DNA of 64,000 nucleotides from an uncultured Bacteroidota bacterium (GCA_902523635.1 CABZAE010000006.1:5623-69622); one strand, 5' to 3'. Counted from the stretch's first letter, positions 13,645-56,511 are shown. The notes: generated from the sequence alone by a model not told the origin. Made by a program: numbers and translations.

Positions 13645-13682
13645 AAAACCAATTGAATCTTTTATGTTTAATTGGTTTTTTT
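13645..13682 (+). terminator. candidate intrinsic terminator after tRNA-Pro
   Basis: Perfect 10-bp stem AAAACCAATT (13645-13654) / AATTGGTTTT (13670-13679), 15-nt loop, T-run through 13682. Confidence 0.4.
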
Positions 13683-13715
13683 AAAGTTTGTAAGCAAATA
13701 TTTAAAACTTAAATA

Positions 13716-15002: not shown

Positions 15003-15012
15003 TTCATAATTG

Positions 15013-18664: not shown

Positions 18665-18707
18665 GATAAATTTGAACTTTAAAATATTTATAAATTAAAA
18701 CAAATTT

Positions 18708-24709: not shown

Positions 24710-24783
24710 CGGGATGTGGCGCAGTCTGGTAGCGTACACGCATGGGGTGCGTGGGGTCGCAGGTTCAAATCCTGTCATCCCGA
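24710..24783 (+). tRNA. tRNA-Pro: tRNA-Pro (anticodon GGG)
   Basis: Acceptor CGGGATG/CATCCCG. Anticodon stem CACGC/GCGTG with loop ATGGGGT. T-arm GCAGG-TTCAAAT-CCTGT. No encoded CCA. Confidence 0.9.
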
Positions 24784-30361: not shown

Positions 30362-30925
30362 ATGAAAATGAAATCAAAAAACTACTTATTAAAAAACGTT
30401 GAGGATTATTGGGAAATTATAAATTATAATTACGATCAGATTCAATATGCAGAGATCAAATCAAGTGTAGTTGTTTCTGTCTACAGTTTATTTTTTACTG
30501 CTGCCTACACAATTGATGTACTTGATGATGAAAATGTTTATAATTTTTCGATGTCATCTTTCGTTGACTACATTCCCATGTTTTTTTTAATTCCAGTTTT
30601 ATATTTTACTATACTTTCATTTGCATCTTGTGTTCGTTGCTTTTTACCAAGACTCAAAGAATCCACACTGAAATCACCATTATTTTTTGGAGATATTTAC
30701 ATGGATTACAAGGACTTTAACGAATACCACCCTAAATTTAAAGAACTCAGAGATAATCCTGAGGATTACCAAAAACACCTAACACACATGGTTTATGTAA
30801 CAGGAAACATTGCATTTACGAAGTTTCTCCATGTTAACAAAGCGATCAAATCTTTAATTAGATCTGTAATTTTTTTTGTTTGTTACATAGCATGTTTTTA
30901 CTTAATTCAATTTATAACCAATTAA
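30362..30925 (+). CDS. DUF5706 / PycTM-like (Pycsar-effector-type transmembrane domain) membrane protein, stand-alone
   Basis: 187 aa, 3-4 TM segments. The pattern YAEIKSS..(TM)..(TM)..FLPR....SPLFFGDIY...F..matches my recollection of DUF5706, which is often fused to HD domains. No cNMP-binding domain. Confidence 0.55.
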   Translation: MKMKSKNYLLKNVEDYWEIINYNYDQIQYAEIKSSVVVSVYSLFFTAAYTIDVLDDENVYNFSMSSFVDYIPMFFLIPVLYFTILSFASCVRCFLPRLKESTLKSPLFFGDIYMDYKDFNEYHPKFKELRDNPEDYQKHLTHMVYVTGNIAFTKFLHVNKAIKSLIRSVIFFVCYIACFYLIQFITN

Positions 30926-30932
30926 AATCAAA

Positions 30933-32501
30933 ATGAAAAAACTATTACTACTTATCACAACAATTACATTAGTTTCATGCTCTGAAACGGTTGAAGCTGA
31001 AAGAATTCCTTGGACCACATCTTCAGAAGAAGCTCACGCTTTATTTGAAGACTTTCTCATCAGAGGCGAAAAAAGACTTTGGGACTCGGAACTTGCCGAA
31101 AAAATGATGGATTCAATCCTGGAACTTGATCCCGAATTTATTTTCGCTAAAACAAGAGACGGTTTCGGAACAAACATTGAAAACAGAGAAAATCTACTTT
31201 ATGCATACGAAAATAGAGAGAAAGTCAGTGATATTGAAAAAAGATTGATTGAATCTTTCTATGAGGTTTGGATTAATGGAAACAGAATCAAAGAAGATGA
31301 GATTATGGATAAATTAGTAGAAGATTATCCACAGTATTATCAACTTAGGATGTGGTCTGGTGACATTAAAAATAGTCTGCAAGATCCAAAGGCTTCACAA
31401 AAAAGATGGGAACAGGCACTTGAAATAAATCCTAAGGCTTTTGGTGCATTCATAAATCTAGCATTCCTACATTTTCCAGTTGACAATACCTTTGTTATGC
31501 TTGCTGCCGAGGAAAGAGATTTAAATGTTGCAATTGATTACCTTACTAAAGGATCTGAAATCTATCCAGAAAGTTCAAGATGGCCTAGATTTCTTGGAAA
31601 TGTATACAGAGCTCAGGGTGATTTAGATAAAGCCTTATCTGCATATGAGAAATCAATTGAACTAATTGAAAAATACGAGGGTAAAAAACCTGGTCCTTAC
31701 GGAAATTCTTTATTAATGGTTGGACATGTCAACACATTCAAGGGTGAATATGACGAAGCTAGAGATGCCTACGATCAAGGTATTGCAGTTTCCAATAATG
31801 GATGGAAAGTGGGAATGGGTAATTTGAAATCTCACACTTATATGTATCAAAAAGATTTTTCATCAGCAATAAGATTATTATCAGAACTACAGGAGGATAT
31901 AAAAGAAATGGACGAGGAAGATAGGTGGATTAATCAGAGACTTTCAGATGTAGAATTCAATAAGTTTTTGGCATTTGGACACAGTCAAAAGGAAGAAGAA
32001 ACATTATTATCAATTCAAAAAATGAAAGAACTTGCTGAAGCTAATCTGAAAATTAATCTTGAAAATGCTTTAAATGATGCTCAAAAAGAAAGAATTAACC
32101 TTGGTTTTAACAAATCTAGTTTATCTGATGTTATTTGGTATAACATTTTGTTTGGTAAATATGAAGAGGCAAGGGAACTTTTAATTGATTTTGAAGAAAT
32201 TTCTGAAAAGCAATTAGCTTACAATCCCAACGCAATGAACGCATTTCACAAATTCTCAGGTTATCTTAACCTCATGGAAGGTGATCCAAATGCTTCTATT
32301 GATTCATATTCTAACTTGACAGATGTTGTTCTAACTGCAGATAACTACCATATGTACTTTTTTGCGCTTGCAAAAAAAGCAGTTGGTGAATCCGAGGAAA
32401 GTGAAAAGATTTTCATCACACTTGCAAATGATAATTTTGCTCAATGGCAAAATGCAATTGTAAAGAACTTAGCAAAAGCACAAATTGAAGTAAATCTTTA
32501 A
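30933..32501 (+). CDS. TPR-repeat lipoprotein
   Basis: 522 aa. Lipobox TLVSCSE. TPR-like helices (ALEINPKAFGAFINLAF; YRAQGDLDKALSAYEKSIEL; GEYDEARDAYDQGIA). Confidence 0.7.
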   Translation: MKKLLLLITTITLVSCSETVEAERIPWTTSSEEAHALFEDFLIRGEKRLWDSELAEKMMDSILELDPEFIFAKTRDGFGTNIENRENLLYAYENREKVSDIEKRLIESFYEVWINGNRIKEDEIMDKLVEDYPQYYQLRMWSGDIKNSLQDPKASQKRWEQALEINPKAFGAFINLAFLHFPVDNTFVMLAAEERDLNVAIDYLTKGSEIYPESSRWPRFLGNVYRAQGDLDKALSAYEKSIELIEKYEGKKPGPYGNSLLMVGHVNTFKGEYDEARDAYDQGIAVSNNGWKVGMGNLKSHTYMYQKDFSSAIRLLSELQEDIKEMDEEDRWINQRLSDVEFNKFLAFGHSQKEEETLLSIQKMKELAEANLKINLENALNDAQKERINLGFNKSSLSDVIWYNILFGKYEEARELLIDFEEISEKQLAYNPNAMNAFHKFSGYLNLMEGDPNASIDSYSNLTDVVLTADNYHMYFFALAKKAVGESEESEKIFITLANDNFAQWQNAIVKNLAKAQIEVNL

Positions 32502-32510
32502 TTCTGAATT

Positions 32511-35500
32511 TTGAATCGACACTTTGCAATATCATTAATATTCCTTTCGTTTAGTTACTTTGGGAGTTCTCAAATTTCTGATCTAGAACTCCCACTAAGC
32601 TCTGAAAATGTTCTTGATATTAAAAAACAAAAAAGTGGACTCTTATGGGCTGCAACAGACGAGGGTTTGAATGTATTTTATGATAATGAAAAATATGTTT
32701 TTTACTCAGACATACAGGACAGTCTAAGTATTCTTAACTCAAAAATTGATAAACTGTTTGTAACATCTAATGACATTTTGATAACCCTTTCACAGGACGG
32801 GCTAAGCGTATTTAATAGTGAGGCATTTAATTTTCAACAAATTAAATTGGAATCTAAACCGATTTTTATAGTTGAAGATCTCATTTCATCAAAATTTTGG
32901 GTTGCAACTGAAAATAGTGGATATTACGTACTCAACGCAAGTTTTAAATTAGATGGTCATTATAAATTTGATCCTCTTAGTCCATTATCAATTTCTACAT
33001 CAAACTTAGTTGGTTCTAAAAAAGAGTCAATTATATTTAATGACGATAAGGTTTTTATTGCCACAAAAAACGGTTTTAATTTATTTGACAAAAACCTAAA
33101 AACATTCAAAAGATTTTTCCGTGGAAAAAAGACACTTTTCACAACAAACAATATCATTGGTATTAGTAAGATCAATGATAAAATTTTAGTAGCTTCTGAA
33201 AAAGAAGTTGTGATTTTTGATCCCAATAAAAATGAATTTGAATCGAGGGTAGAAACATTTGGTGATATCAAATCTTTACATAAATCTGTAGAAAATAAGA
33301 CATACATTCGAACAACCAATACGAATTATGTAATCTCAGATTTAACTAAGAGTGATTACTTAGAGAATGTTAGAAATATAAAAGTTCCGGATGAAGAATA
33401 TGTAATTATTGACGATTTTAAAACTAATTATTTCTGGTCTAAAGGCAGTAATTTAATAACCACAGCTGATATCAACCTAAAAAACATAAAAAAAATTAAA
33501 TTGGATGGGCTCATAAATTCAATTTATTCTGACAATAGTCAGATTTTAATAGGAACAAACAATGGAGCAAAATCTATTAGTCTTGATAACATCGGTGTAA
33601 ATAAAATTGGTGACTTCACATCATCAAATTTTTTTCATGTTTACAATAATAAGCTGGTTAATATAACAGGGAATAGTATACAACTTAAAGAAAAAAATAA
33701 TAGGATAAAAAGTATAACAGTCCCAATCAATCTTGCCCAGATGTCATACTCAGCCAATGATAATTTAATATATTTTGGATCCAAGGATATTCACTTGTTT
33801 GACATAGATAAAGAAGTTTTTTATAAATCAATTGTAAATGGTTCTTCATTTAACGGATATCAAATTAATAATTTGAAAATTGTTGAAAATAAATTATTTG
33901 TGTCACATGATAATGGAATATTTGAAATTTCAAACAAAGAGATTGGCAATTACAAGTCAGAGTTGAATATTCTTTTTTATGATTATAATGAGCTGTTAAA
34001 CAGTAGTATCCCTAAAGGTTTTATTGATATCGAAAAAATTGACTCAAATTATTATGTTACTAATCAACAATCTGGTCTATCATTGTATGAAAATGACTTC
34101 AATTCTTTTGTAAAAAGTTTCACCTTTAATGGAGATCCTACCAAATCATTGGCAAGCTCAACGCCAACAAAATTATTGTACAATGATGATGAAGAAACAC
34201 TCTTCATAGGTTCAATCGGTTCCGGACTATTTAAATACGAAATTGAAAACGAGACTTTTTCAAATTTAAATCTAAATGATGGGATGCTTTCCAATAATGT
34301 ATATGATTTTTTAAAATTTGATAATAAAGTTTTTTTTCAATCAGGAACTGGGATAAATTTTATTGAAAATGGTTTAGTCAAAAATATAACTTATGAAGAT
34401 GGGCTAAATCTGGTTTCTTATCACGACCAATCTCTTCACGCTTTTGGTGATGAATTATTGATCTCTGCAAATGAAATGATTCAAACTTTTTCTTTAGAGT
34501 CAATTGAATCCTCAAATAATAATTTTAACATTAATGCATTTAATGTTACTGGAATTGATGAGTTAAATAATAAGAAAATTGTTCCAGTAAATGAAAACAA
34601 AATTGAAATAGATTACCAAACTAAAACGATTTTATTTGACTTATTTTCTAATAATAGTTATAAGGAAAATCAATTACAGTATTTTGTTGAGAAAATCGAT
34701 TCTGATGAAATTGTAAAAAACGGTTACAATAACCAAATTCAGCTCAGTGGACTCCCCTACTACACATCCGATCTTAGCTTTTATGCTGTAAATGGAAATG
34801 GAGTAAAAAGTAATAATACGATTGAGATCTCCGTATATAATGCTCCCCCTTGGTGGCTTAGAATCGAAACAATTGTTGGTTATGTCATCTTATTAATCGG
34901 TTTTGTATCCTTCTTCGTAAAATACAGGGAAAAGAAAACTAAAGAACGAATGGAAGGTGAAAGAAAATCTGCTGAACTTGAGGAAGCAAAAGAATTACAA
35001 AATAGCCTTCTTCCAAAAGTACTCCCTCAAATTGAGGGTTTTGACATAAGTACTTATCTAAAACCTGCAACAGAAATCGGGGGTGACTACTACGATTTTT
35101 TCTACAAAAAAGGTGAATACTTCTATGCCATATGTGGAGATGCTACCGGTCATGGTGTGATTTCAGGAATAATGGTTTCTGTAACCAAAGCAGGACTACA
35201 CGGAGTTCCCATGGGTGATCCAACAAAAATTTTAGGGCAGCTCAATAGGATTGTAAAGCGAGTTAATTTTGGAAGGCTAAGAATGAGTTTGAGTGTAGCA
35301 AAGTTTAATAAAACTGCTGTCGAATTAAGCTCTGCAGCAATGCCACCTACCTACTTCTTCTCATCTAAATCTAAAAAAGTGGAAGAAGTTTTGGTTCCTA
35401 ATCTACCACTTGGTGGGATTGAAACTGAAAAGTTTGATGGTGTAAAAAAAGAATTTAAAAGTGGTGATGTAATGGTGATGATTTCAGATGGACTTCCTGA

Positions 35501-35681
35501 ACTTCCTAACCCTGCAAATGACTTATTGGATTATGAAAAGGTTCAAAAATGTATCAAAGATAACGCTGAGAAAAGTGCAGATGAAATAAAAGAAGCGCTC
35601 GTCTATCTCTCAGATGAATGGGCAAGTGGTGTGATGAACCCTGATGATATTACCATAGTTGTAATAAAAAAAGCTGCTTAA
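32511..35681 (+). CDS. sensor PP2C (SpoIIE-family) phosphatase: degenerate beta-propeller ectodomain, TM, coiled coil, PP2C
   Basis: 1056 aa. Signal peptide. Long repeat-rich ectodomain. TM (IVGYVILLIGFVSFFV). PP2C motifs GGDYYDFF and CGDATGHGVISG, and DGLPE. Confidence 0.85.
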   Translation: MNRHFAISLIFLSFSYFGSSQISDLELPLSSENVLDIKKQKSGLLWAATDEGLNVFYDNEKYVFYSDIQDSLSILNSKIDKLFVTSNDILITLSQDGLSVFNSEAFNFQQIKLESKPIFIVEDLISSKFWVATENSGYYVLNASFKLDGHYKFDPLSPLSISTSNLVGSKKESIIFNDDKVFIATKNGFNLFDKNLKTFKRFFRGKKTLFTTNNIIGISKINDKILVASEKEVVIFDPNKNEFESRVETFGDIKSLHKSVENKTYIRTTNTNYVISDLTKSDYLENVRNIKVPDEEYVIIDDFKTNYFWSKGSNLITTADINLKNIKKIKLDGLINSIYSDNSQILIGTNNGAKSISLDNIGVNKIGDFTSSNFFHVYNNKLVNITGNSIQLKEKNNRIKSITVPINLAQMSYSANDNLIYFGSKDIHLFDIDKEVFYKSIVNGSSFNGYQINNLKIVENKLFVSHDNGIFEISNKEIGNYKSELNILFYDYNELLNSSIPKGFIDIEKIDSNYYVTNQQSGLSLYENDFNSFVKSFTFNGDPTKSLASSTPTKLLYNDDEETLFIGSIGSGLFKYEIENETFSNLNLNDGMLSNNVYDFLKFDNKVFFQSGTGINFIENGLVKNITYEDGLNLVSYHDQSLHAFGDELLISANEMIQTFSLESIESSNNNFNINAFNVTGIDELNNKKIVPVNENKIEIDYQTKTILFDLFSNNSYKENQLQYFVEKIDSDEIVKNGYNNQIQLSGLPYYTSDLSFYAVNGNGVKSNNTIEISVYNAPPWWLRIETIVGYVILLIGFVSFFVKYREKKTKERMEGERKSAELEEAKELQNSLLPKVLPQIEGFDISTYLKPATEIGGDYYDFFYKKGEYFYAICGDATGHGVISGIMVSVTKAGLHGVPMGDPTKILGQLNRIVKRVNFGRLRMSLSVAKFNKTAVELSSAAMPPTYFFSSKSKKVEEVLVPNLPLGGIETEKFDGVKKEFKSGDVMVMISDGLPELPNPANDLLDYEKVQKCIKDNAEKSADEIKEALVYLSDEWASGVMNPDDITIVVIKKAA
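34974..35681 (+). repeat. 708-nt near-identical paralogous segment, copy A (PP2C effector half)
   Basis: Collinear without indels with 38246..38953 (constant offset 3272). Roughly 90% aa identity by eye, with a 63-aa identical run. Confidence 0.85.
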
Positions 35682-35701
35682 GTACTAAAAGGTTTACATT
35701 A

Positions 35702-38700
35702 ATGGAAAGCATAGCAAAAATCAATTATCTATTTTTTTCTCTTTCTTTACTTATAGTTACCCAATTATCATCACAAGATTTTAAAGATAATTCTGAATAT
35801 GAGTTTGAGAAATACGCAGTCGAGGAAGGAACAGCAATGAATGCCTCTCAGGTTGTATTTGAGGATAGTAATGGTTTCATATGGCTTGGATCTCAAAGTG
35901 GTATAGATAGATTTGATGGTTACGAATTTATTAATTATGCAAATATTTCCTCTGACTCGTTATCAACTAATCTTACTTGGGTTAACACTATTTCCGAAGA
36001 TAGATTTGGAAATATTTGGGCTGCTGATCAATTTGGTAATGTTTCAAATTATAAAAGACTGGAAGATAAATGGTATAATTATTATCCTGAGTATAAAGAT
36101 TTAATTACTAATATTCCCGAGGGCACAAATTTAAATTTTAGCTACCAACCGAGCTCGATTGTAGTTAGTAAAGACGGAAGATACTCTTTTGTTGGTGTTT
36201 TTCGTTTTGGTTTAATCAGAATAGACTCAGAAACAGGTACTCAAAAATACTATCAAGATGATTTTAAGTTTTCTGAATGGTATGACATTAATTCTGCAGA
36301 TAAAATGATTAATGAAATGGAATGGTTAGATGATACAAGAATTTTGATCGCTACTGGAGACGGCCTTAGAGTTTTTGATATTGAAAAAGAGACCTACACA
36401 GATGAATTTTTAAGAACACAAAATAAAGACCAAGGAAACTTTCCTGAAGACAGGGTATGGATCAGAAATTTTGAAATAATCGATGAAAACAATTTGTGGA
36501 TATCAGGTCGGAATGGAGTTATCTACAAAGTAAATTTAAAAGAAAATTCTCTAGAAAATTACAGTGAAAAAACAGATTTATCAAATTCAGAAGCCTCACA
36601 AATTTTATTGGATAAAAAAAATAATCAACTTTGGGTTAATATTCAAAATATTGGAATTGATATTCTTGATATAGAGACAAATCAAGTAAATAACCTCAGA
36701 AATTACAATTCTCCACTTATCGGCAAAGAGTTCAACAATATTATAAAAGATAAACAACAAAATATATGGATTTCAAGTGCTACGGATGGATTATTAAAAT
36801 TTGATCCAAACAAAAAAAAATTTAAAGCTTACTCAAAAGATGAACCTTCTGAATTTAAATTAGATTTTTCTATCGCTTGGGGGGCACACATTGACAGGAA
36901 GGGTGTTGTCTGGGTTGGTACCAGAGACCCAGGGGGTGGTATTGTAGGATTGGACTTCAAAAATAATAGAAGGTATTCGTCAGGAAAGATTAATAATAAC
37001 TCAGCAGGCGGATATAACATTACTGAGGATAATGTCGGAAATATTTGGGCAATACGAGGATCTGACGGTATTTGGTTGAAAAAAAATGATGAGGAACAGT
37101 TTAAATTTCTCGGTTCTTACACTAATCAACTTAGAAACGATAAAAGTTATTTAGACAATCTTGTTCAAGGTCATTTAACATATGACAAAAATCTAATAAT
37201 CCCAAGTGAACGTACGGTTTGGCTAGCTGATAAAAACGGAAATCCTGTTTATGAAGAATACACTAGGTTAACAAATGGGATTAAAAACAGAATAAGAGCA
37301 TTTCACAGAAAAGACTCAATTTCAACCTATGTTGTAGCTGATAAATCAATATGGTTGTGGGACGAAAAAGGCAATAAATTCAAGGATTTGACACCTGATT
37401 TAGATATTCCGATCTTTGAAACACTCGCACAATCTCCAGTAGCTGTTCTCAAAAACAAAATGTATATACCTACCTACGGAAGCGGTATCATTGTTGTGGA
37501 TTTTGAAACTCAAGACTTAAGTTATATAACAACAAATGAGGGACTTCCTAACATGTATTTATATAACATGTTTCTAGACAAGGATAATTTTCTATGGATG
37601 TCCTCTAATCAGGGTATTTTGAAATATGATCCTGAAAAATTAGAATTTAAACAATATACCCCTGTTGATGGAACACAAGAATATGAATATAATGCTGGGA
37701 GTGCATGGCAATCAGATGATGGTTACATAGTGATGGGAGGTTTGAATGGGATTAATTATTTTAATCCTTCTACGCTGAATGAGAACCGATTGCCACCCAA
37801 GGTTCTTATAAAAAACATAAATATAGGTGGAATAAATAAAAAGTTTGAATCTGTATCAAATAATGAATATGTTGATATTGAATTTAAAAATAATTCAATA
37901 TCCTTCGAATATTTAGCACTCAGCTTTAGAAATACTGCTCAAAATCAATATAGGTATAAAATGGAGGGTTATGATTCTAATTGGATCGAAGCTGGAACAA
38001 GAAGATTTGCGAGCTATACCAATTTACCTATTGGAACTTATACATTTAGAGTTATTGGCTCAAACAATGACGGCGTATGGAACGAGATAGGTGCTAGTTA
38101 CAAACTCAACATTCTTCCTCCATGGTATAGAACCTATTTCGCATATGGAGGCTATGTTTTACTATTAATTTTCGGATTTAGATCTTTTGGAAAGTATCAG
38201 GCTAAAAAATCAATTGTTCAAGCTAATAACAAAAGAAGAAATAAAGAACTTCAAGAAGCAAAAGAATTACAAACTAGTTTATTACCAAAAGTTAATCCAA
38301 CAATCCCAGGTTATAAAATCAGTACTTATCTTAAATCAGCCACAGAAGTTGGTGGTGACTACTACGACTTTTTCTACAAAAAAGGTGAATACTTCTATGC
38401 TATATGTGGAGATGCTACCGGTCATGGTGTGATTTCGGGAATGATGGTTTCCGTTACAAAAGCAGGATTACATGGTATTCCCATGGCTGAACCATCAAAA
38501 ATTTTAGGACAATTGAACCAAATTGTTAAAAAAGTTAATTTTGGGAGACTCAGAATGAGTTTAAGTGTAGCAAAATTCAATCCTAATAATGTCGAATTGA
38601 GCTCTGCAGCAATGCCTCCCACCTATTTCTTTTCCTCAAAATCTAAAAAAGTGGAAGAAGTTTTAGTTCCTAATCTGCCACTTGGTGGTATTGAAACAGA

Positions 38701-38953
38701 AAAGTTTGATGGTGTAAAAAAAGAGTTTAAAAGTGGTGATGTAATGGTGATGATTTCGGATGGACTTCCAGAACTTCCAAACCCTGTAAACGACTTATTA
38801 GATTACGAAAAGGTTCAAAAATGTATTAAAGATAATGCTGAGAAAAGTGCAGATGAAATAAAAGATGCACTAGTCAATCTTTCAGATGAATGGGCAAGTG
38901 GTGTGATGAACCCAGATGATATAACTATTATTGTAATAAAAAAAGCTGCTTAA
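35702..38953 (+). CDS. sensor PP2C (SpoIIE-family) phosphatase: Reg_prop beta-propeller plus Y_Y_Y ectodomain, TM, coiled coil, PP2C
   Basis: 1083 aa. Signal peptide. Propeller-type repeats (NGFIWLGSQSGIDRFDG, NLWISGRNGVIYK, NIWISSATDGLLKFD, FLWMSSNQGILKYD). Y_Y_Y block YRYKMEGYDSNWIEAG..YTNLPIGTYTFRV. TM. PP2C motifs as in the paralog. Confidence 0.9.
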   Translation: MESIAKINYLFFSLSLLIVTQLSSQDFKDNSEYEFEKYAVEEGTAMNASQVVFEDSNGFIWLGSQSGIDRFDGYEFINYANISSDSLSTNLTWVNTISEDRFGNIWAADQFGNVSNYKRLEDKWYNYYPEYKDLITNIPEGTNLNFSYQPSSIVVSKDGRYSFVGVFRFGLIRIDSETGTQKYYQDDFKFSEWYDINSADKMINEMEWLDDTRILIATGDGLRVFDIEKETYTDEFLRTQNKDQGNFPEDRVWIRNFEIIDENNLWISGRNGVIYKVNLKENSLENYSEKTDLSNSEASQILLDKKNNQLWVNIQNIGIDILDIETNQVNNLRNYNSPLIGKEFNNIIKDKQQNIWISSATDGLLKFDPNKKKFKAYSKDEPSEFKLDFSIAWGAHIDRKGVVWVGTRDPGGGIVGLDFKNNRRYSSGKINNNSAGGYNITEDNVGNIWAIRGSDGIWLKKNDEEQFKFLGSYTNQLRNDKSYLDNLVQGHLTYDKNLIIPSERTVWLADKNGNPVYEEYTRLTNGIKNRIRAFHRKDSISTYVVADKSIWLWDEKGNKFKDLTPDLDIPIFETLAQSPVAVLKNKMYIPTYGSGIIVVDFETQDLSYITTNEGLPNMYLYNMFLDKDNFLWMSSNQGILKYDPEKLEFKQYTPVDGTQEYEYNAGSAWQSDDGYIVMGGLNGINYFNPSTLNENRLPPKVLIKNINIGGINKKFESVSNNEYVDIEFKNNSISFEYLALSFRNTAQNQYRYKMEGYDSNWIEAGTRRFASYTNLPIGTYTFRVIGSNNDGVWNEIGASYKLNILPPWYRTYFAYGGYVLLLIFGFRSFGKYQAKKSIVQANNKRRNKELQEAKELQTSLLPKVNPTIPGYKISTYLKSATEVGGDYYDFFYKKGEYFYAICGDATGHGVISGMMVSVTKAGLHGIPMAEPSKILGQLNQIVKKVNFGRLRMSLSVAKFNPNNVELSSAAMPPTYFFSSKSKKVEEVLVPNLPLGGIETEKFDGVKKEFKSGDVMVMISDGLPELPNPVNDLLDYEKVQKCIKDNAEKSADEIKDALVNLSDEWASGVMNPDDITIIVIKKAA
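38246..38953 (+). repeat. 708-nt near-identical paralogous segment, copy B (PP2C effector half)
   Basis: See copy A. Long stretches of nucleotide identity, e.g. ggtgaatacttctatgc.atatgtggagatgctaccggtcatggtgtgatttc. Confidence 0.85.
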
Positions 38954-40887
38954 TTGGTATCGAAAATCCAATTACTAATCTCATTTGATTTTCCTTTCAC
39001 TCTGATTGGTTCTTGAGCCTCGAAACTGCTCTTATTGGAAATCTGATTAAAAACACTTTCAGAAATAACAACCTGACCAGATTTTGCATGAGAACATAAT
39101 CTCGCAGCAAGGTTAACCGCATCACCAATTACTGTATAATTCATTTGTTTTTCTGAACCAATATTTCCTGAAACAACTTTACCATAGTTGATACCTATTC
39201 CAATTTTGAGTTCAGGAAGATTTTCTTTACTCATTTTTTTATTAAACTTTTTGAGAGATTTGAACATTTCAATTGCTGTATTGACAGCGTTCTGAGAATC
39301 ATTTTCGCTTTTAATGGGAACTCCATACAATACCATTAACTCATCTCCAATTATTTTATCTAGAGTTCCATTGTGTGAAAAAACTACATCTATCATAGCC
39401 TCAAAATAATTATTTAATAAATAAACTACCTCTGATGGTTTCATTTTTTCGGATAAGCTGGTAAATCCTCTTATGTCACAAAATAAAACACAGACCTCAT
39501 TTTGTGCACCTCCAAGTTCAAGTGAATTTTCATTTTGGAGAAGTTCATCTACAATATTTTCGGAGACATACTTTTTAAATGTGGATTTAATTTTATTTAT
39601 GCCCGAAAGGTCCTCAAATGAAAAAACCAAACCAGATCTTTCATTTTGTTCGCTGTAAACAGCCGATAGAGTCAAGTTAATTTCTCGGCTTAATCCACTT
39701 GAATCAATTATATTAAAATTGTCCTCATAGATTGTTTCATCTTGAGTTTCAGACTTTTCCAATAACTCAATTAGTTTGGGATTGTTTTGAAAAACCATGA
39801 AATAGTGATTATTTATAACACCCTCATCATCAAGAGAAAATATTTTTTTGGCTGATTCATTAACAAATTCGATTTCTCCTAATATGTTTATCATTATAAT
39901 CCCGGTTGTAATGGATGACATTATGTTATCAACAAGTTTATTTGAACTCTTCAATGAATCTATTAAGCGAATGTTATCATAAGCATGACTAACTTTTTTA
40001 CTTAAGCTATCAAACAATCTTAAATCTTGTTGCGTAAATCTAACTAATCCACTTCTACTCTCTTTATCGAAAAGTAATATGGCTCCTTCAAGTGAATTTT
40101 CTGTAATTATTGGACTAATTAAAGCATTTTTTCTCGATAGTTTTAATAGAGAGAATTCTTGAGGATTATCAATTACTTTTGATATTTTTTTATCATTTAA
40201 TTCTTTTAAAATTCCTCTTGTTATTCTTAATATTTTACTAGGTAATTCATCTTTTTGAATATTAAATTGTGAAACAACATTAAAAAAACCTGACTTTTCG
40301 TCTTTCAACAAAACCATTCCCTTGGATGAGTTCAAAATTGAAATTATCGTTATTAACAACCCCTCAAAAAGCTCTTCTTTCAATCCCTGTTGGTTGTCAA
40401 TTAAATCAGTTACATCAATTAGTGATTCAATTTCTAGTAATTTGTTTTTTAACTCGTTGTTAGAAATTGTAAGTTTATTTTCAATCTCCTTAACTTTAAT
40501 TAAATTTTCTAATTGAAATTTAAGACTCAATATTATGCTTTTGAGCTTTTGATTAAAATTAATTTTATCTGAGATGATTATAAATCCCAGGGGTTTATCA
40601 TAAACAGATATTGAAAATATTTTTATTGATTCTATGCAATCTACGTCAATAAAGGTATTTAATAACTTAAACTTTTCTGAAGATTTTAATAATTCTGTTA
40701 GAGTGTCTTGAGAAATAAGATTTAAAGGAAAATCCGATTTGAAATAATTAAATAATCCTAATGATTTTAAAAGTGATTTTTTTGAAAAAAAAACAATCTG
40801 TAAGGTCTCTAGGCCTTTGATTGAATTTACAAAATGAATCTTGTCCTTTGGATTTTTAGTTTCGTCAAGAACTAGAAGAGGCTCCAA
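38950..40887 (-). CDS. GAF-GAF-PAS class III adenylate cyclase
   Basis: 645 aa. Cyclase homology domain with metal Asp residues (VLFCDIRGFT, IIGDELM). Adenine-specifying Lys (DKIIGD) and Asp (VIGDAVNLAARL). Upstream PAS (ITTGIIMINILGEIEFVNESAKKIF) and GAF-like regions. Confidence 0.9.
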   Translation of the reverse strand: MEPLLVLDETKNPKDKIHFVNSIKGLETLQIVFFSKKSLLKSLGLFNYFKSDFPLNLISQDTLTELLKSSEKFKLLNTFIDVDCIESIKIFSISVYDKPLGFIIISDKINFNQKLKSIILSLKFQLENLIKVKEIENKLTISNNELKNKLLEIESLIDVTDLIDNQQGLKEELFEGLLITIISILNSSKGMVLLKDEKSGFFNVVSQFNIQKDELPSKILRITRGILKELNDKKISKVIDNPQEFSLLKLSRKNALISPIITENSLEGAILLFDKESRSGLVRFTQQDLRLFDSLSKKVSHAYDNIRLIDSLKSSNKLVDNIMSSITTGIIMINILGEIEFVNESAKKIFSLDDEGVINNHYFMVFQNNPKLIELLEKSETQDETIYEDNFNIIDSSGLSREINLTLSAVYSEQNERSGLVFSFEDLSGINKIKSTFKKYVSENIVDELLQNENSLELGGAQNEVCVLFCDIRGFTSLSEKMKPSEVVYLLNNYFEAMIDVVFSHNGTLDKIIGDELMVLYGVPIKSENDSQNAVNTAIEMFKSLKKFNKKMSKENLPELKIGIGINYGKVVSGNIGSEKQMNYTVIGDAVNLAARLCSHAKSGQVVISESVFNQISNKSSFEAQEPIRVKGKSNEISNWIFDTN

Positions 40888-40901
40888 TATGAAAAATCGT
40901 G

Positions 40902-41240
40902 TTACATGGCACTAACTGCTTCCTGTTGTGTAGCATAACTTTCACAGTACTTCGTAAGTCCCATTATTTTAAATGTTTTTTCAATAATAGGTGCCAGTCC
41001 ACAAAAAGCCAAAGCACCATCCTTTTCTTGAAGCTGTTCAATTAATTCGATTAGAATTGAGGCTCCAATACTGTTCACAATATTGGATCTTTCTAAATTG
41101 ATTAAAATTTTATTTTTTCCATTTGCTATATGTTCTTGAGCAGAATTCTGAATATCTTCTCCAAGATCTTTATTTAAATAACCTTCAGTTGTTATAACGA
41201 CAACTTCCCCAATTAATTCGACGTTCGTAACTTTATTCAT
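40902..41240 (-). CDS. STAS-domain anti-sigma-factor-antagonist-like protein (SpoIIAA/RsbV family)
   Basis: 112 aa. Candidate phospho-Ser in IVNSIGASILIE (equivalent to the DSSG context). 14 nt upstream of the cyclase gene. Confidence 0.85.
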   Translation of the reverse strand: MNKVTNVELIGEVVVITTEGYLNKDLGEDIQNSAQEHIANGKNKILINLERSNIVNSIGASILIELIEQLQEKDGALAFCGLAPIIEKTFKIMGLTKYCESYATQQEAVSAM

Positions 41241-41661
41241 TTGTAGCTTCCTTTTTTTTAATCATTGTTAGTGTTGTTCCTGTATGATCTGATTCGAAAT
41301 CAACTGAATCCATCAATTCTTTAATTAACATAATCCCCCAGCCTCTTTTTCTTTCATCGCTGTTAAGTTTGGACTCAATTTTTGGGATTTTGACATTGGA
41401 TTGATCAAAACCTTTTCCTTTATCAATAACCTTTATTGTCAACTGATTTTCTTCGATCAAAAAGTCAATATAAACTTCACTTTTAGATTCAGAATGTTCG
41501 AATGCATTGATACATGCTTCAATAAGAGCCATTGATATTTCACCTGTTTTCTCTTCAGAAAGATCCATATGCCTGGCTACTATTTCTGCTGTTTGTGTAG
41601 CAACAAGTTCCATATCCTTTAGAATGGGTAGTTTTAATTCTACACTTGGTTTTTTGCTCAT
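41233..41661 (-). CDS. RsbW/SpoIIAB-like serine protein kinase (HATPase_c, anti-sigma-type)
   Basis: 142 aa. N-box EACINAFEH, G1 DKGKGF, G2 GWGIMLIKEL. 8-nt overlap with the STAS gene. Confidence 0.85.
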   Translation of the reverse strand: MSKKPSVELKLPILKDMELVATQTAEIVARHMDLSEEKTGEISMALIEACINAFEHSESKSEVYIDFLIEENQLTIKVIDKGKGFDQSNVKIPKIESKLNSDERKRGWGIMLIKELMDSVDFESDHTGTTLTMIKKKEATNE

Positions 41662-44314: not shown

Positions 44315-45097
44315 ATGGGTAAGGTAATTGCAATTTCAAATCAAAAAGGAGGTGTTGGAAAAACTACGACTGCACTTAACCTTGCTGCATGTCTTGGTAT
44401 TTTGGAGAAGAAAGTTTTGTTAATAGACTTGGATCCTCAAGCTAACGCAAGTTCTGGAATTGGTGTTAACAACATTAATAAAAACAAAACATCATATCAA
44501 CTAATTGAACATACTGAAAAAGCTAAAAATGTTATTATCAAATCAGAAAGTCCTAATCTTGATGTAATTCCCTCAAGTATTGATCTAGTTGCTATTGAAA
44601 TTGAATTAGTTAACCATCCTAACAGAGAATTTATGTTAAAAAAGGCTATAGCTGAAGTCAAGGATATTTATGATTTCACAATCATTGATTGTGCTCCATC
44701 ACTTGGATTAATTACACTTAATGCATTAACAGCGGCTAATTCCTTAATTATTCCTATTCAATGTGAATATTTTGCACTCGAAGGCCTTGGAAAACTTTTA
44801 AATACAATTAAAAGTGTTCAAAAATTACATAATAAATCTTTAGAAATTGAAGGGCTTTTGTTGACTATGTATGATTCCAGATTAAGATTATCAAACCAGG
44901 TTGTAAATGAGGTCAAAAAACATTTTCAAATGATGGTTTTTAAGACTGTGATCCATAGAAACGTTAAACTAGGTGAAGCACCTAGTCATGGAAAGAACAT
45001 TGTTGATTACGATGCAACAAGCAAAGGGGCTAAGAATTACATTAAATTAGCACAAGAGCTGATAAATAAAAGTTTAGTGAATGGCAAAAGCTTATAA
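44315..45097 (+). CDS. parA: chromosome partitioning ATPase ParA/Soj
   Basis: 260 aa. Deviant Walker A NQKGGVGKTTT. DLDPQ and IIDCAPSLG blocks. Confidence 0.92.
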   Translation: MGKVIAISNQKGGVGKTTTALNLAACLGILEKKVLLIDLDPQANASSGIGVNNINKNKTSYQLIEHTEKAKNVIIKSESPNLDVIPSSIDLVAIEIELVNHPNREFMLKKAIAEVKDIYDFTIIDCAPSLGLITLNALTAANSLIIPIQCEYFALEGLGKLLNTIKSVQKLHNKSLEIEGLLLTMYDSRLRLSNQVVNEVKKHFQMMVFKTVIHRNVKLGEAPSHGKNIVDYDATSKGAKNYIKLAQELINKSLVNGKSL

Positions 45098-45980
45098 AAA
45101 ACAACCTCTTGGGCGGGGATTATCTGCGCTTCTTAGTGATCAGATTGAAGGTGTGGAGTCAGCTAATGATAAAGATGCTGATCAAATTATTGGAAATATA
45201 GTTGAAATTCCCTTAGATCAAATTAAAATTAATCCGTTTCAGCCTAGGACAAATTTTGAGAATGAAAAAATACTTGAATTGGCTAATTCAATTAGTGAAC
45301 TTGGAGTTATACAACCAATTACTGTTAGAAAAAAAGGAGCTAAATCATATGAAATAATTTCGGGAGAGCGAAGACTAAGAGCTCTTCAATTTTTAAAAAT
45401 AAAAGATATTCCAGCTTATGTTCGAATTGCAAACGATCAGCAATCTCTTGAGATGGCACTGGTAGAAAACATTCAGAGGGAAGATTTGGATCCAATTGAA
45501 ATTGCTTTGTGTTACCAAAGATTAATGGACGAAGTGATGCTTACACAAGACGAAATGAGTAGAAGAGTTGGAAAAAAAAGATCAACAATTGCTAATTACA
45601 CAAGATTACTAAAATTAGATCCTATTATACAATCAGGAATAAGAGACAAATTTATTTCAATGGGGCACGGAAGAGCGATACTGTCTGTTGAGAAAAGTGA
45701 AGATCAACTAAAACTATATAAAAAAATATTAAAAAACTCACTTTCCGTTAGAGACGTTGAGCTTTTAGCCAAAAAGCAAGGTAAAACCAATTTGGGTAAC
45801 ATAAAATCAGAAACAAAACTTTCTAAAAACTTAAATGATGAATTAATAAAGTTGAGAAAAGTTTTTAATTCGAAAGTTAATATTAGGTTAAAAGAAAAAG
45901 ATAATGGAACAATACTTTTTCCTTTTACTAATATTACAGAATTCAAAACTCTAATTAAAAAGCTCAATGCAAAAAAATAG
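45081..45980 (+). CDS. parB: chromosome partitioning protein ParB/Spo0J
   Basis: 299 aa. LGRGLSALL, NPFQPR, GERRLRA boxes. HTH region. Confidence 0.92.
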   Translation: MAKAYKKQPLGRGLSALLSDQIEGVESANDKDADQIIGNIVEIPLDQIKINPFQPRTNFENEKILELANSISELGVIQPITVRKKGAKSYEIISGERRLRALQFLKIKDIPAYVRIANDQQSLEMALVENIQREDLDPIEIALCYQRLMDEVMLTQDEMSRRVGKKRSTIANYTRLLKLDPIIQSGIRDKFISMGHGRAILSVEKSEDQLKLYKKILKNSLSVRDVELLAKKQGKTNLGNIKSETKLSKNLNDELIKLRKVFNSKVNIRLKEKDNGTILFPFTNITEFKTLIKKLNAKK

Positions 45981-48932: not shown

Positions 48933-49535
48933 ATGACACCATGCTATTTTGCTCCCATATCACATTGGAGTATAATTAAAGATGGAAATGTCCTGTGGGA
49001 AACTAATGAAAACTATTTGAAACAAAGTTTGAGAAATAGAACCTATATTTTAGGGCCAAATAAAGTTTTGAAGCTAATTATTCCAATCAAACACCTAGAA
49101 CATAAAACACCCTTAAAAAAAACTTTAATTGATAATACATTCAACTGGCAAAAAAATCATATGGCAGCTCTTAAGACATCATATAATTCATCTCCTTTCT
49201 TTGAATACTACAGGGACGAATTATTTAATTTTTATTCTCAAAAGTTTTCTAAATTATTAGATTTTAATTACCAGGCAATGAACTTAATTTTAAATTGGCT
49301 AGATATTAATTTAGTATTGAATGAAACAAAAAACTATTTAAAATCGCCCTCTGGTATTGTAGATAAAAGAAAAATGTCTAATAAAAGTTTCGATGATAAA
49401 TTCATAGTAAAAACATACACTCAAGTATTTTCAAAAAATAAAAAAAATTTCAAAAATAACTTGAGTATTTTGGACCTAATATTTAATATGGGACCTGAAA
49501 GTATAAACTATCTTACAAAAAAAAGCAGGCCATAA
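48933..49535 (+). CDS. WbqC-family protein
   Basis: The track ORF starts at a GTG at 48876, inside lepB. The ATG at 48933 (MTPCYFAPISHW...) fits the usual WbqC N-terminus. The start is uncertain. Confidence 0.7.
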   Translation: MTPCYFAPISHWSIIKDGNVLWETNENYLKQSLRNRTYILGPNKVLKLIIPIKHLEHKTPLKKTLIDNTFNWQKNHMAALKTSYNSSPFFEYYRDELFNFYSQKFSKLLDFNYQAMNLILNWLDINLVLNETKNYLKSPSGIVDKRKMSNKSFDDKFIVKTYTQVFSKNKKNFKNNLSILDLIFNMGPESINYLTKKSRP

Positions 49536-49806
49536 GCCGGATTCTGTCTTGCCTTATCATTTATCTAGACAATTTATTACTAAATTGTTCTTACCGCCTA
49601 CCCTTCAACATTGAACGAGCAATTCTCAAGCGTTGGTTTACATGGCGTTTCACCTTACAGAGTTTACCTGATTTCACTACAGCCTAGCTGTACATTCTTT
49701 CTGTTGCACTTGTCCTATATTTTCATATGACGGGTGTTACCCGCTGTAATGCTCTTTGGTGTCCGGACTTTCCTCTTTTAAAAAAAGCGATAAGGTAGCC
49801 TGCTAT
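49521..49806 (-). ncRNA. rnpB: RNase P RNA, bacterial type A (boundaries +/- 10 nt)
   Basis: The minus strand reads AGCAGGCTACC..GAGGAAAGTCCGGACACC..GGGTAACACCCGTC..AAGTGCAACAGAAAG..GGTGAAACGCC..GGGTAGGCGGTAAG..GACAGAATCCGGCTTATGGCCTGCTTTTTTT. Universal CR-I and CR-V motifs are present and the P1 helix is AGCAGGC/GCCTGCT. It is a GC-rich island with no ORF. Confidence 0.88.
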
Positions 49807-55602: not shown

Positions 55603-56511
55603 TTATGAAATATCAAATTCCTTACCATCTTCAGCTAACACGACATTTTTAAAAATTCTTTTTGCTTCAATTTCGAAATCTTGAAGATTTTTATATCTAG
55701 ATGAAAAATGTCCCAAAATTAACTGCTTACAGTTTGCTTTTTTTGCAACCATTGCCGCCTGCATCGCGGTTGAATGTTTTGTCTTCTTTGCCAAATTAAT
55801 GTGCTTCTCTAAAAAAGTTGATTCATGGTAAAGCACATTGGAATCTTTTATTAGATCGGTAACTTCATCCGAATAAGCAGTATCAGAGCAATAGGAATAT
55901 AAAATATCTTTTTCTTTCGGATGAGTAATTTCTTTATTATTAATGATTGTACCATTATCAAGTATGACATCCTTTCCCATTACTATGTTGGTATAGAGTG
56001 ATTCGTCAATATTCAATTTTTTTATTTTATCAAGCTTCAACTTTTTCCTTTGGATTTTTTCAGTAAACAAAAATCCATTAGTATAAATTCTATGTTTGAG
56101 TGGAATAGTCGATACGGAAAACAAATCATTTTCTAAAATTTTTACGGTTGTTTTTTCTTTAAGTTCTATATAGTTTATTTCAAAATCTATCCAAGAGTTT
56201 CCCAACTTTAATATTAGGTTCATTACATCTTTGATGCCAGTAGGACCAAAAATATTTAACCTTTTGGTTCTACCCATCAACCTGAAAGTTGATATTAATC
56301 CTGGAAGACCAAAGAAATGATCTCCGTGTAGATGAGATATAAATATATTTTCAATTGATGAAAATTTAACTCCATATCTTCTGATTTGGATTTGGGTACC
56401 TTCTCCACAGTCAATCAAAAGGTTATTTCCGTTTATATTCAAAATTTGAGATGAAGGAAATGAATTTTTTCTTGGAGAAGCAGAATAACATCCAAGGATT
56501 TTTAATTTCAT
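55603..56511 (-). CDS. rnz: ribonuclease Z
   Basis: 302 aa. Metallo-beta-lactamase motif SHLHGDH. N-terminal KILGCYSA..LIDCGEGTQ. Confidence 0.9.
   Translation of the reverse strand: MKLKILGCYSASPRKNSFPSSQILNINGNNLLIDCGEGTQIQIRRYGVKFSSIENIFISHLHGDHFFGLPGLISTFRLMGRTKRLNIFGPTGIKDVMNLILKLGNSWIDFEINYIELKEKTTVKILENDLFSVSTIPLKHRIYTNGFLFTEKIQRKKLKLDKIKKLNIDESLYTNIVMGKDVILDNGTIINNKEITHPKEKDILYSYCSDTAYSDEVTDLIKDSNVLYHESTFLEKHINLAKKTKHSTAMQAAMVAKKANCKQLILGHFSSRYKNLQDFEIEAKRIFKNVVLAEDGKEFDIS

Follow-up and report, generated by a model that had tools for sequence, protein, structure and literature searches.

Here, we analyzed a seven-gene island of a marine flavobacterium, located within a 64,000-nucleotide stretch of DNA (hereafter, the window), and conclude that it probably represents a self-contained partner switch that lacks a sigma factor and has a class III adenylate cyclase, activated by the STAS protein, as its output. 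The layout, spacings, domains, and catalytic residues of the island were checked in the sequence. The plus-strand run consists of 4 genes, encoding a PycTM-family membrane protein (30362-30925), a TPR lipoprotein (30933-32501), sensor phosphatase 1 (32511-35681), and sensor phosphatase 2 (35702-38953), with intervening gaps of 7, 9, and 20 nt. It is met by a minus-strand run that encodes a serine kinase (41233-41661), a STAS protein (40902-41240), and the cyclase (38950-40887); the kinase and STAS genes overlap by 8 nt, and 14 nt separate the STAS and cyclase genes. The 2 runs share the palindrome TTAA (38950-38953), which is common to the convergent stop codons of phosphatase 2 and the cyclase. 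These coordinates agree with a preliminary description of this DNA, which had reported the stop-on-stop meeting of the 2 runs as well as the overlap and gap in the minus-strand run, and the Pfam profile search that it proposed yielded matches to SpoIIE, STAS, HATPase_c_2, and Guanylate_cyc.

Conservation of the linkage between the triad and the cyclase, named beforehand as decisive, was examined by anchoring the search both ways. A cyclase-anchored set comprised 80 species-level loci from Flavobacteriales, Cytophagales, and Chitinophagales, of which 76 were informative. In 74 of these 76 loci, spanning all 3 orders, the kinase, STAS, and cyclase genes are contiguous and occur in the same order; the remaining 2 contain a PP2C gene inserted between the STAS and cyclase genes, and none of the 76 lacks the kinase or the STAS gene. 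Conversely, a kinase-anchored survey of 80 metagenome loci provided no counter-example to the cyclase linkage. At least one large membrane PP2C gene is found in 74 of the 80 cyclase-anchored loci, with the other 6 cut by contig ends, so that the link of PP2C genes to the kinase-STAS-cyclase core, also singled out for checking, is seen wherever the contig allows. The position of the PP2C gene varies, being either convergent-downstream or co-directional-upstream, as does its orientation, and the genes flanking the cassette are unrelated between clades. Unbiased clustering of neighboring ORFs at 82 loci showed that the only families recurring around the cyclase are STAS, kinase, PP2C, PycTM, TPR, and TMEM175. 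The carriers of the cassette include abundant marine and freshwater bacterioplankton, namely, Flavobacteriaceae, Marinoscillum, Sediminibacterium, and Aquirufa. The co-operonic position shows a functional link between the switch and the cyclase, without specifying its direction. Judged by genomic context, with the cluster kept in 3 orders of Bacteroidota, what the switch most likely governs is the synthesis of cAMP and not a sigma factor.

The triad that characterizes partner-switching systems is present, namely, a STAS protein with the conserved Ser, a HATPase_c_2 kinase with its boxes, and linked SpoIIE/RsbU-type PP2C proteins with metal-binding Asp motifs. The 142-aa kinase is of the RsbW/SpoIIAB-type GHKL family (HATPase_c_2, PF13581, 91 bits), and its N, G1, and G2 boxes (EACINAFEHS, DxGxGFD, and RGWG, respectively) are invariant in 72 homologs. 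The 112-aa, single-domain STAS protein (PF01740, 44.7 bits) carries Ser57 (codon 41070-41072, as checked by translation) opposite Ser58 of SpoIIAA, within the motif VNSIGxSI that is invariant, Ser57 included, in 79 homologs; this residue is the predicted phospho-acceptor. Thus, the kinase boxes reported as intact and the STAS Ser reported as conserved are both invariant. Both proteins have their top scores with models and structures of RsbW, SpoIIAB, and SpoIIAA, as could be expected if the island were a canonical anti-sigma switch, in which the kinase holds back a sigma factor from another part of the genome and the cyclase just shares the transcript, serving a parallel or unrelated function. 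We consider this scenario highly improbable. The scores against the NCBIfam equivalog models of RsbW, SpoIIAB, and SpoIIAA are far below the cut-offs (63 bits for the kinase and RsbW, against a cut-off of 145, and similarly for the others). In the window, which had been described as devoid of sigma genes, no Sigma70 domain was detected by Pfam in any of the 37 ORFs screened (the 7 island genes and 30 other window ORFs, ~100-560 aa, with ~20 larger ORFs outside the screen), and in the ORF clustering across 82 loci, neither a sigma factor nor a transcription factor recurs near the cyclase. Furthermore, the trio has not been split by rearrangement in the 3 orders, even though its surroundings change. 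The conserved linkage and the lack of a recurrent sigma factor together support the earlier proposal that the cyclase is the output of the switch.

The output enzyme itself is a 645-aa class III (IIIb-like) cyclase, as indicated by Pfam matches to Guanylate_cyc (PF00211, 115 bits) and PAS (35.9 bits). The AF2 model consists of a variable N-terminal domain, a long helix, a GAF domain (nt 39982-40377), a PAS domain (nt 39604-39933), another helix, and the catalytic domain (nt 38968-39504). Of the GAF-GAF-PAS architecture proposed previously, the PAS and one GAF are supported, and the second GAF is not; residues 1-110 form a variable N-terminal domain that is not a GAF and that Chitinophagales lack. 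The single GAF is weak in the window cyclase (16.8 bits), with orthologs reaching 35 bits and the AF2 model in agreement. Residues D471, D515, K511, D589, N592, and R596, which comprise the 2 metal-binding Asp, the Lys/Asp adenine-specifying pair, and the Asn/Arg transition-state pair, are invariant in homologs, in line with the initial reading of the metal and adenine-specifying residues as intact. K511 occupies the specificity position of Synechocystis Cya2, where structure 2w01 has Glu and the adenylate-cyclase-converted 6fht has Lys. The best solved relatives of the cyclase are Cya2 and CyaB, its catalytic domain being closest to Cya2 (137-159 bits). The Lys/Asp pair predicts ATP as the substrate, so the product would be cAMP, as also expected from the complete set of catalytic residues. 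In Chitinophagales, a C-terminal HD domain is fused to the cyclase, and a gene for a TMEM175 channel follows the cyclase gene. With GAF and PAS sensors of its own, the cyclase could be regulated without the switch; these domains would provide a second, cytoplasmic input.

The 2 large proteins encoded on the plus strand each contain a signal peptide, an ectodomain, one TM, and a PP2C module, in which the motifs GGDYYDF, CGDATGHG, SDGLPE, and PDDIT are conserved in an alignment of 98 domains. In phosphatase 1 (1056 aa, TTG start), the SpoIIE domain (PF07228) scores 82.7 bits (aa 870-1053; nt 35118-35669), and in phosphatase 2 (1083 aa), 88.6 bits (aa 897-1080; nt 38390-38941). Both ectodomains had been assigned to the propeller/Y_Y_Y type. 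For phosphatase 2 (ECTO2 type, HTCS-like), Pfam bears this out, with matches to Y_Y_Y (62 bits; nt 37925-38113), Reg_prop (51 bits), and the PorZ propeller that are found only in this one of the 2 proteins; over 457 aa, this ectodomain shares 74% identity with a Marinoscillum cassette phosphatase. The divergent propeller/Y_Y_Y-like ectodomain of phosphatase 1 (~780 aa, ECTO1 type), by contrast, yields no match in a Pfam search and is recognizable only by profile-profile comparison, which shows it to be homologous to the ectodomain of phosphatase 2 over the full length (hhalign probability 99.9%, E 4.9e-33, 691 columns). The ancestral phosphatase of the cassette in Flavobacteriaceae and Marinoscillum is of the ECTO1 type. 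An ortholog of the TPR protein is encoded in 29 of the 80 cyclase-anchored loci, nearly always beside an ECTO1-type PP2C gene. In the window, this 522-aa protein has its highest-scoring TPR-family match to TPR_12 (57.7 bits) and a signal peptide, read directly from the N-terminus, that ends in a lipobox-like LVSC with Cys16; it is likely to be a periplasmic co-sensor or scaffold.

The phosphatase genes include a gene-conversion tract, represented by 2 plus-strand copies (34975-35681 in phosphatase 1 and 38247-38953 in phosphatase 2) that show 91% DNA identity over the whole compared stretch. The high-identity tract runs from the juxtamembrane helix to the stop codon and so covers the PP2C module; inside it, the proteins are ~93% identical, and upstream of it, they are diverged. 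The PP2C modules of the 2 phosphatases have been homogenized by gene conversion. Comparable homogenization of tandem PP2C modules is seen at 6 other loci (L008, L044, L058, L076, L079, and L083), whereas non-tandem ECTO1 and ECTO2 modules are only ~52% identical. Repeated homogenization of tandem PP2C modules, with the sensor domains diverged, fits an arrangement in which several sensors act on one substrate.

We propose that the 2 inner-membrane phosphatases sense a periplasmic cue through their large propeller/Y_Y_Y ectodomains, with the TPR lipoprotein as a probable partner. In view of the intact, invariant catalytic motifs, the PP2C modules would remove the phosphate from Ser57 of the STAS protein, the RsbW-type kinase would restore it, and the phosphorylation state of the STAS protein would then set the activity of the cyclase. 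By analogy with SiaC-SiaD, HsbA-HsbD, and BgrV-BgrR, the unphosphorylated STAS protein would activate the cyclase dimer by binding to a helical or regulatory part of it, whereas phosphorylated or kinase-bound STAS would not. Alternatively, the effector could be the kinase itself, holding or activating the cyclase until displaced by the dephosphorylated STAS protein, such that the cyclase stands where the classical partner switch has its sigma factor. Of the components, the kinase evolves most slowly, with 65-70% identity between orders, compared to 55-64% for the catalytic domain, 45-53% for the STAS protein, and 51-58% for PP2C. This suggests more than one constrained interface, as expected of wiring in which a kinase holds its target. 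Moreover, its nearest solved relatives, RsbW (6m36 being the best) and SpoIIAB, are true anti-sigma factors. Strong conservation might have other causes, however, and in characterized switches with an enzyme as the output, it is the STAS-type partner that contacts or controls the enzyme (PMC8457831, PMC13555669). We therefore regard control of the cyclase by the kinase as unlikely and favor its activation by the STAS protein.

The 187-aa PycTM-family (pJV1-spdB3-type) protein encoded by the first gene of the plus-strand run raises the question of what might lie downstream of the cyclase. It matches PF18967 (PycTM) with 36 bits, above the cut-off of 27.2, and its AF2 model is all-helical, with 3 long membrane helices (pLDDT 78). 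PycTM and PucTM proteins are cNMP-linked membrane effectors of Pycsar and Pucsar (bioRxiv 10.64898/2026.08.12.744502), and the island resembles these systems in combining the gene of a PycTM-family 3TM protein with that of a neighboring class III-type cyclase. Hence, the island might be seen as a regulated Pycsar/Pucsar-like anti-phage system, in which a cyclic nucleotide opens the PycTM pore and the phosphatase/kinase/STAS layer arms the system upon an attack on the envelope. In the immune Pycsar/Pucsar clade, this nucleotide is cCMP, cUMP, or cGMP. The PADLOC PycTM models give a full-length match (65 bits; residues 12-184 against profile positions 5-154 of 160), the cyclase domain scores 95 bits against PycC models, and PycTM genes lie next to the core in 34 of the 47 Flavobacteriaceae and Marinoscillum loci, in 3 different arrangements, one of them directly convergent on the cyclase. 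This linkage is at odds with the preliminary treatment of the PycTM-like gene as a bystander. Nevertheless, an anti-phage system of this kind appears very improbable. The generic Pfam cyclase model scores higher than the best PycC model (115 against 95 bits), the adenine-specifying Lys/Asp pair is canonical, and the nearest solved relatives are physiological class III cyclases. The kinase, STAS, and PP2C proteins have no PADLOC match. The PycTM gene was found in none of the 33 Chitinophagales/Cytophagaceae loci, nor in the available flanks of loci L024, L029, and L035, and a 52%-identical homolog stands alone, elsewhere. In the window, the island is flanked by housekeeping genes, with no mobile-element genes seen among the flanking ORFs by Pfam, and the cassette evolves slowly and in accordance with taxonomy, its kinases being ~70% identical across orders, unlike fast-evolving defense genes. 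Unlike Pycsar and Pucsar, with their compact gene pair and defense-island-like context, the island has its 2 genes 8 kb apart within a conserved, chromosomal, housekeeping-like cluster, from which PycTM is dispensable in a whole family branch; its cyclase, furthermore, is multidomain, predicted to be adenine-specific, and placed under the proposed phospho-switch. The PycTM-family protein is probably an accessory or downstream component, outside the invariant core.

A more speculative extension of the STAS-activated switch, which we put forward only tentatively and consider rather doubtful, is a full periplasm-to-membrane circuit, running from the phosphatases through STAS and the kinase to the cyclase, with cAMP acting locally on a dedicated, channel-like membrane protein encoded in the cluster. 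In Flavobacteriaceae and Marinoscillum, the target would be the PycTM-family 3TM pore; in Chitinophagales, it would be the TMEM175-type K+ channel. The signal would be ended by an HD phosphohydrolase, whether a stand-alone protein or a domain fused to the cyclase. If such a circuit exists, it would include the first PycTM-type effector that works with cAMP under a partner switch, serving either normal physiology or an envelope-triggered dormancy or abortive-infection response. More generally, the linkage of PycTM to the core hints that a defense-type effector fold may also have a physiological, cAMP-related role.

To our knowledge, sigma-less partner-switching genes are common in Bacteroidota and their outputs essentially unknown, and cAMP signaling in this phylum is almost unstudied. 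The cassette offers one defined, phylum-wide, and experimentally tractable answer, namely, a switch that would feed into an adenylate cyclase of class III. Its sensors are similar to those with which hybrid two-component systems detect glycans in the periplasm, so the cassette may couple polysaccharide or envelope cues to a second messenger. The island has its 3 switch protein families in common with the RsbU-RsbV-RsbW-SigB and SpoIIE-SpoIIAA-SpoIIAB-SigF modules of Bacillus, including the conserved phospho-Ser and N, G1, and G2 boxes, but, unlike these, has no linked sigma factor, and its co-inherited fourth gene encodes a cyclase. The soluble GAF-PAS-catalytic domain architecture of this enzyme is that of the Anabaena CyaB1/CyaB2-type cyclases, from which it differs in having one supported GAF and either a lineage-specific N-terminal domain or, in Chitinophagales, the C-terminal HD fusion. 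We know of no description of obligate clustering with a kinase-STAS pair for CyaB1.

Direct control of a diguanylate cyclase by the STAS or STAS-like protein of a partner switch has been characterized, and in SiaABCD of Pseudomonas aeruginosa, unphosphorylated SiaC binds the helical stalk of SiaD and activates it, whereas phosphorylation blocks the binding (PMC8457831, PMC7647112). As in the island, a membrane PP2C phosphatase (SiaA), a small Ser/Thr kinase (SiaB), a small phospho-switch partner (SiaC), and a cyclase (SiaD) are encoded together, and the AF2 model of the island cyclase also contains long helical linkers. By contrast, the island output is a class III cyclase, predicted to make cAMP, and SiaD is a GGDEF enzyme producing c-di-GMP; the island switch protein is a true STAS (PF01740) and SiaC a DUF1987 protein; and the island phosphatases carry ~800-aa periplasmic propeller sensors, their match to the NCBIfam SiaA model being negligible (~19 bits against a cut-off of 700). 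In HsbR-HsbA-HsbD of P. aeruginosa and BgrU/BgrW-BgrV-BgrR of Sinorhizobium meliloti, a genuine STAS protein controls the cyclase according to its phosphorylation state (as cited in PMC8457831). These are diguanylate cyclases of Proteobacteria, as opposed to a cAMP cyclase of Bacteroidota, and HsbR is a response-regulator fusion, whereas the input phosphatases of the island are periplasmic sensors. As in all these systems, the island cyclase gene is inherited with those of the kinase and the switch protein. Because its output is PF00211 and not GGDEF, the island would therefore work like the Sia, Hsb, and Bgr systems without being a member of them. The preliminary description omitted these diguanylate cyclase precedents; what is new here is the predicted cAMP output of a cyclase-controlling partner switch, which would extend STAS phospho-switch control of nucleotide cyclases from c-di-GMP to cAMP.

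The seven genes of the island are arranged in two operons that converge on a TTAA at window positions 38950-38953, the common end of both. On the plus strand, the gene for a 187-aa PycTM-family protein (30362-30925) is followed, after 7 nt, by that of a TPR lipoprotein (30933-32501), after 9 nt by that of phosphatase 1 (32511-35681) and after 20 nt by that of phosphatase 2 (35702-38953). The minus-strand operon starts with the kinase gene (41233-41661), which shares 8 nt with the STAS gene (40902-41240); the cyclase gene (38950-40887) begins 14 nt after the latter. The ORF map thus agrees exactly with the gene order, spacings and convergence of the preliminary description, the domain calls of which are also borne out by Pfam (PycTM, TPR, two SpoIIE domains, Reg_prop/Y_Y_Y/propeller, HATPase_c_2, STAS, PAS and Guanylate_cyc). 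The flanks consist of ordinary metabolism and cell-cycle genes, including those for an enolase-superfamily epimerase, DUF1611, a glucose/sorbosone dehydrogenase, cytochrome c and uridine kinase, so that the island is sharply bounded at 30362-41661. We found no sign of mobile elements around it: RNase P RNA (49518-49806, minus strand; 196 bits), two tRNAs (13561-13635 and 24710-24783, plus strand) and a ParA/ParB pair (44315-45980) are chromosomal housekeeping features. The Rfam scan gave no match within the island, and predicted promoters and terminators were no more common there than in shuffled sequences, under a model that is not designed for Bacteroidota promoters. The chromosome has a G+C content of ~30%, and uncultured marine Flavobacteriales and Flavobacteriaceae are its nearest relatives in public data. 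Elsewhere in the window, two adjacent minus-strand ORFs (58338-59144 and 59203-59592) match, respectively, the C-terminal (118-361) and N-terminal (1-86) parts of the profile of a single class I/II aminotransferase, a split that reflects pseudogenization, a frameshift or an assembly error, and a 239-aa ORF without a Pfam match (7898-8617, minus strand) shares 47 nt with the start of its neighbor, ORF 6820-7944.

A scan with an alignment of the cyclase, using one genome per GTDB species, yielded 80 loci, the six-frame ORFs of which were searched with the window proteins. These loci originate from Flavobacteriaceae, from Marinoscillum, Flammeovirgaceae, Cytophagaceae, Aquirufa and Spirosoma, and from Sediminibacterium and Chitinophagaceae. 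Among the 76 informative loci, i.e., those in which 900 bp or more precede the cyclase, none lacks the kinase or STAS gene, and in 74 the kinase, STAS and cyclase genes are contiguous, on one strand and in one order; in the remaining two (L068 and L073), a PP2C gene is placed between STAS and cyclase. The reverse search, in which a kinase alignment was compared with metagenome contigs, produced 80 loci, with kinase-STAS-cyclase found in every locus with sufficient downstream DNA. The proximity of sensor phosphatases to these three genes recurs as well, given that a large membrane PP2C is encoded in 74 of the 80 cyclase-anchored loci and the other six are cut by contig ends. Its placement varies: it lies downstream and convergent in most Flavobacteriaceae and Marinoscillum, and upstream in the same direction in Chitinophagales and in one clade of Flavobacteriaceae; the outer flanks are unrelated between clades. 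An unbiased search for recurrent families, by all-against-all clustering of every ORF from 82 loci, recovered the cyclase (82 loci), STAS (80), kinase (78), PP2C (75), PycTM (36), TPR (33) and TMEM175 (23) families, and no recurrent sigma factor or transcription factor. A Sigma70 domain was likewise detected by Pfam in 0 of the 37 window ORFs screened. The loss of linkage in relatives that the preliminary description named as refuting was thus not observed, and, with neither a recurrent regulator among the neighbors nor a Sigma70 domain among the screened ORFs, functional coupling of the triad to the cyclase is well supported. The same clustering contained an ORF of ~106 aa inside the cyclase gene, antisense to its catalytic part (e.g., L021:11125-11442, minus strand) and "conserved" in 62 loci; it is almost certainly not a gene but a side effect of sense-strand conservation in AT-rich DNA.

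All components of the core retain the residues expected of active proteins. The N box (EISMALIEACINAFEHS), G1 box (VIDxGxGFD) and G2 box (ERKRGWG) of the kinase are fixed among 72 homologs, as is the VNSIGxSI motif among 79 STAS proteins, in which Ser57 is aligned with the phospho-acceptor Ser58 of SpoIIAA, and the metal-binding motifs are retained in 98 PP2C modules. In the cyclase, both metal-binding Asp residues and the base-specifying Lys/Asp pair, previously noted as intact, are invariant, and so is the Asn/Arg pair. Lys511 aligns with the specificity position of Cya2 that is occupied by Glu in this guanylate cyclase and by Lys in its adenylate-cyclase-converted form, and ATP is accordingly the predicted substrate. 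One part of the proposed cyclase architecture found no support, namely, the second GAF domain: Pfam, the orthologs and the AF2 model support just one. The GAF match in the window protein is sub-threshold (16.8 bits) and reaches up to 35 bits in the orthologs, which contain one clear GAF, and the model includes a single GAF-like alpha/beta unit (residues 189-275). The extra N-terminal domain (residues 1-110) is small, variable, poorly conserved and missing from the Chitinophagales proteins. The model further contains long helical linkers at residues 113-185, 282-324 and 428-449.

We regard a sigma-less partner switch with a class III adenylate cyclase as its output as a fairly probable reading of this cassette. 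Judging from the respective protein families, the PP2C phosphatases would dephosphorylate STAS-P and the kinase would re-phosphorylate STAS; by analogy with characterized systems, the phosphorylation state of STAS would control the cyclase. In the version that we favor, unphosphorylated STAS would bind and activate the enzyme. Direct control of a nucleotide cyclase by a phospho-switch protein has been characterized for SiaC-SiaD, HsbA-HsbD and BgrV-BgrR (PMC8457831). SiaC, when unphosphorylated, clamps onto the helical stalk of the SiaD dimer (PMC8457831; PMC7647112), and the modeled helical linkers of the class III cyclase could take the place of this stalk. In Anabaena, an enzyme is reported to be regulated via a phosphorylatable STAS domain (PMC13555669). 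It is on these precedents and on the linkers that the preference for STAS as activator rests, and the assignment of STAS, and not the kinase, as the direct effector is considerably less certain than the sigma-less switch itself. The main alternative is the classical wiring, with the cyclase held by the kinase until STAS displaces the latter. Consistent with this scenario, the kinase is the slowest-evolving component, with 65-70% identity between orders, compared with 55-64% for the catalytic domain of the cyclase, 51-58% for PP2C and 45-53% for STAS.

The two sensor phosphatases appear to have different histories. The ectodomain of phosphatase 1 has zero Pfam matches; profile-profile comparison aligns its family with the Reg_prop/Y_Y_Y family of phosphatase 2 over 691 columns with 99.9% probability, so that the initial assignment of both ectodomains to the propeller/Y_Y_Y type is upheld. 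At the DNA level, the last ~700 nt of the two genes are ~91% identical overall; the tract of high identity begins at the juxtamembrane helix and ends with the stop codon, and the sensor parts are unalignable. The same homogenization is seen in tandem PP2C genes of six other loci, compared with ~52% identity between non-tandem PP2C modules of the ECTO1 type (that of phosphatase 1) and the ECTO2 type (that of phosphatase 2). The ectodomain of phosphatase 2 (window 35702-38100) shares 74% identity over 457 aa with a cassette phosphatase of Marinoscillum, a member of Cytophagales (L045:1-2199), whereas that of phosphatase 1 does not exceed 55% identity with any flavobacterial relative. Given this much closer affinity to Marinoscillum, the second sensor was likely acquired laterally, after which its PP2C module was overwritten by the resident one through gene conversion, in keeping with the action of both phosphatases on one STAS substrate. 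Comparison of the TPR lipoprotein, against a target set contaminated by a truncated sequence, gave only a weak alignment of TPR with TPR, local in extent (98 columns, hhalign probability 71%), to the ectodomain of the ~630-aa phosphatases (signal peptide, TPR, TM, PP2C) that form arrays of two to four in several Chitinophagales/Cytophagaceae loci.

The accessory genes differ between lineages. The 187-aa protein belongs to the PycTM family over its full length (65 bits across the complete PADLOC profile, and above the Pfam cut-off). A 2026 preprint describes this family as 3TM effectors of the pJV1-spdB3 type that serve Pycsar/Pucsar cyclases and assemble into a hexameric channel (bioRxiv 10.64898/2026.08.12.744502). 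This membership and the linkage to the core are additions to the preliminary description. Among Flavobacteriaceae, the PycTM gene adjoins the core in 25 of 34 loci, and among Marinoscillum in 9 of 13, the others being mostly truncated; in Chitinophagales/Cytophagaceae, it does so in 0 of 33. Where present, it heads the phosphatase operon, converges directly on the cyclase or diverges from the kinase. The link is not strict, as indicated by the absence of the gene from the available flanks of three cassette loci (L024, L029 and L035) and by a solitary, 52%-identical homolog (L087:5610-6143) located between OmpA-like and fatty-acid desaturase genes, with no cyclase, kinase or STAS gene in the 5.6 kb upstream and 10 kb downstream covered by this locus. 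The nearest PycTM relatives outside the cassette (P0178 and P0179) are on contigs too short to show their gene context. Foldseek comparison of the PycTM-like model with the PDB returned nothing below E = 2, and a sequence search of the PDB gave no match. In all 33 loci of Chitinophagales/Cytophagaceae (L054-L086), the cyclase ends in a fused HD phosphohydrolase domain at its C-terminus, and it is immediately followed by a gene for a TMEM175-type K+ channel in 24 of these, as in L058, where cyclase-HD (9980-12094), TMEM175 (12099-12767) and a phosphatase array (12803-20352) are consecutive. Marinoscillum loci (L038, L040-L052) encode a homologous, stand-alone HD protein of ~200 aa, the gene of which converges on that of PycTM with an overlap of ~5 bp, the pair lying just upstream of the kinase (e.g., L041:7939-8562 and 8557-9090). 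Fusions of HD and PycTM found no support: a search of 1.8 billion representatives detected 139 relatives, all of them 50-226 aa long. The fused HD domain shows only a marginal partial match to the HD-GYP structure 4mcw (E 0.002), and a role as cNMP phosphodiesterase is a guess. The pattern hints that the channel-like membrane proteins and the HD hydrolase may act downstream in the circuit or terminate its signal. A protein of metallo-beta-lactamase fold (window 55603-56511, minus strand) has a match to the anti-Pycsar cNMP phosphodiesterase Apyc1 that falls short of the threshold (29.8 of the required 50 bits). This enzyme is probably of a generic MBL or RNase Z-like kind, noteworthy just for the nearby PycTM-family gene.

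The cassette is conserved across the phylum Bacteroidota, in which, to our knowledge, sigma-less partner switches and cAMP signaling are both poorly understood. In the portion of the full-text literature covered, we found no account of an adenylate cyclase as the output of a partner switch. With Pycsar/Pucsar, the cassette has the PycTM effector family in common but differs in context and predicted nucleotide. That it is a true defense system is, in our estimate, very improbable: its genomic context is housekeeping, its conservation is slow and tracks taxonomy, the cyclase is adenine-specific by prediction, and the switch proteins match no PADLOC model. From RsbU/RsbV/RsbW, with which it shares the triad, the cassette departs in that no cognate sigma factor was found among the screened window ORFs or the recurrent neighbors. 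In operation, it would resemble SiaABCD, HsbA-HsbD and BgrV-BgrR, of which it is nevertheless not a member, because its output is a class III cyclase, whereas theirs is a GGDEF enzyme.
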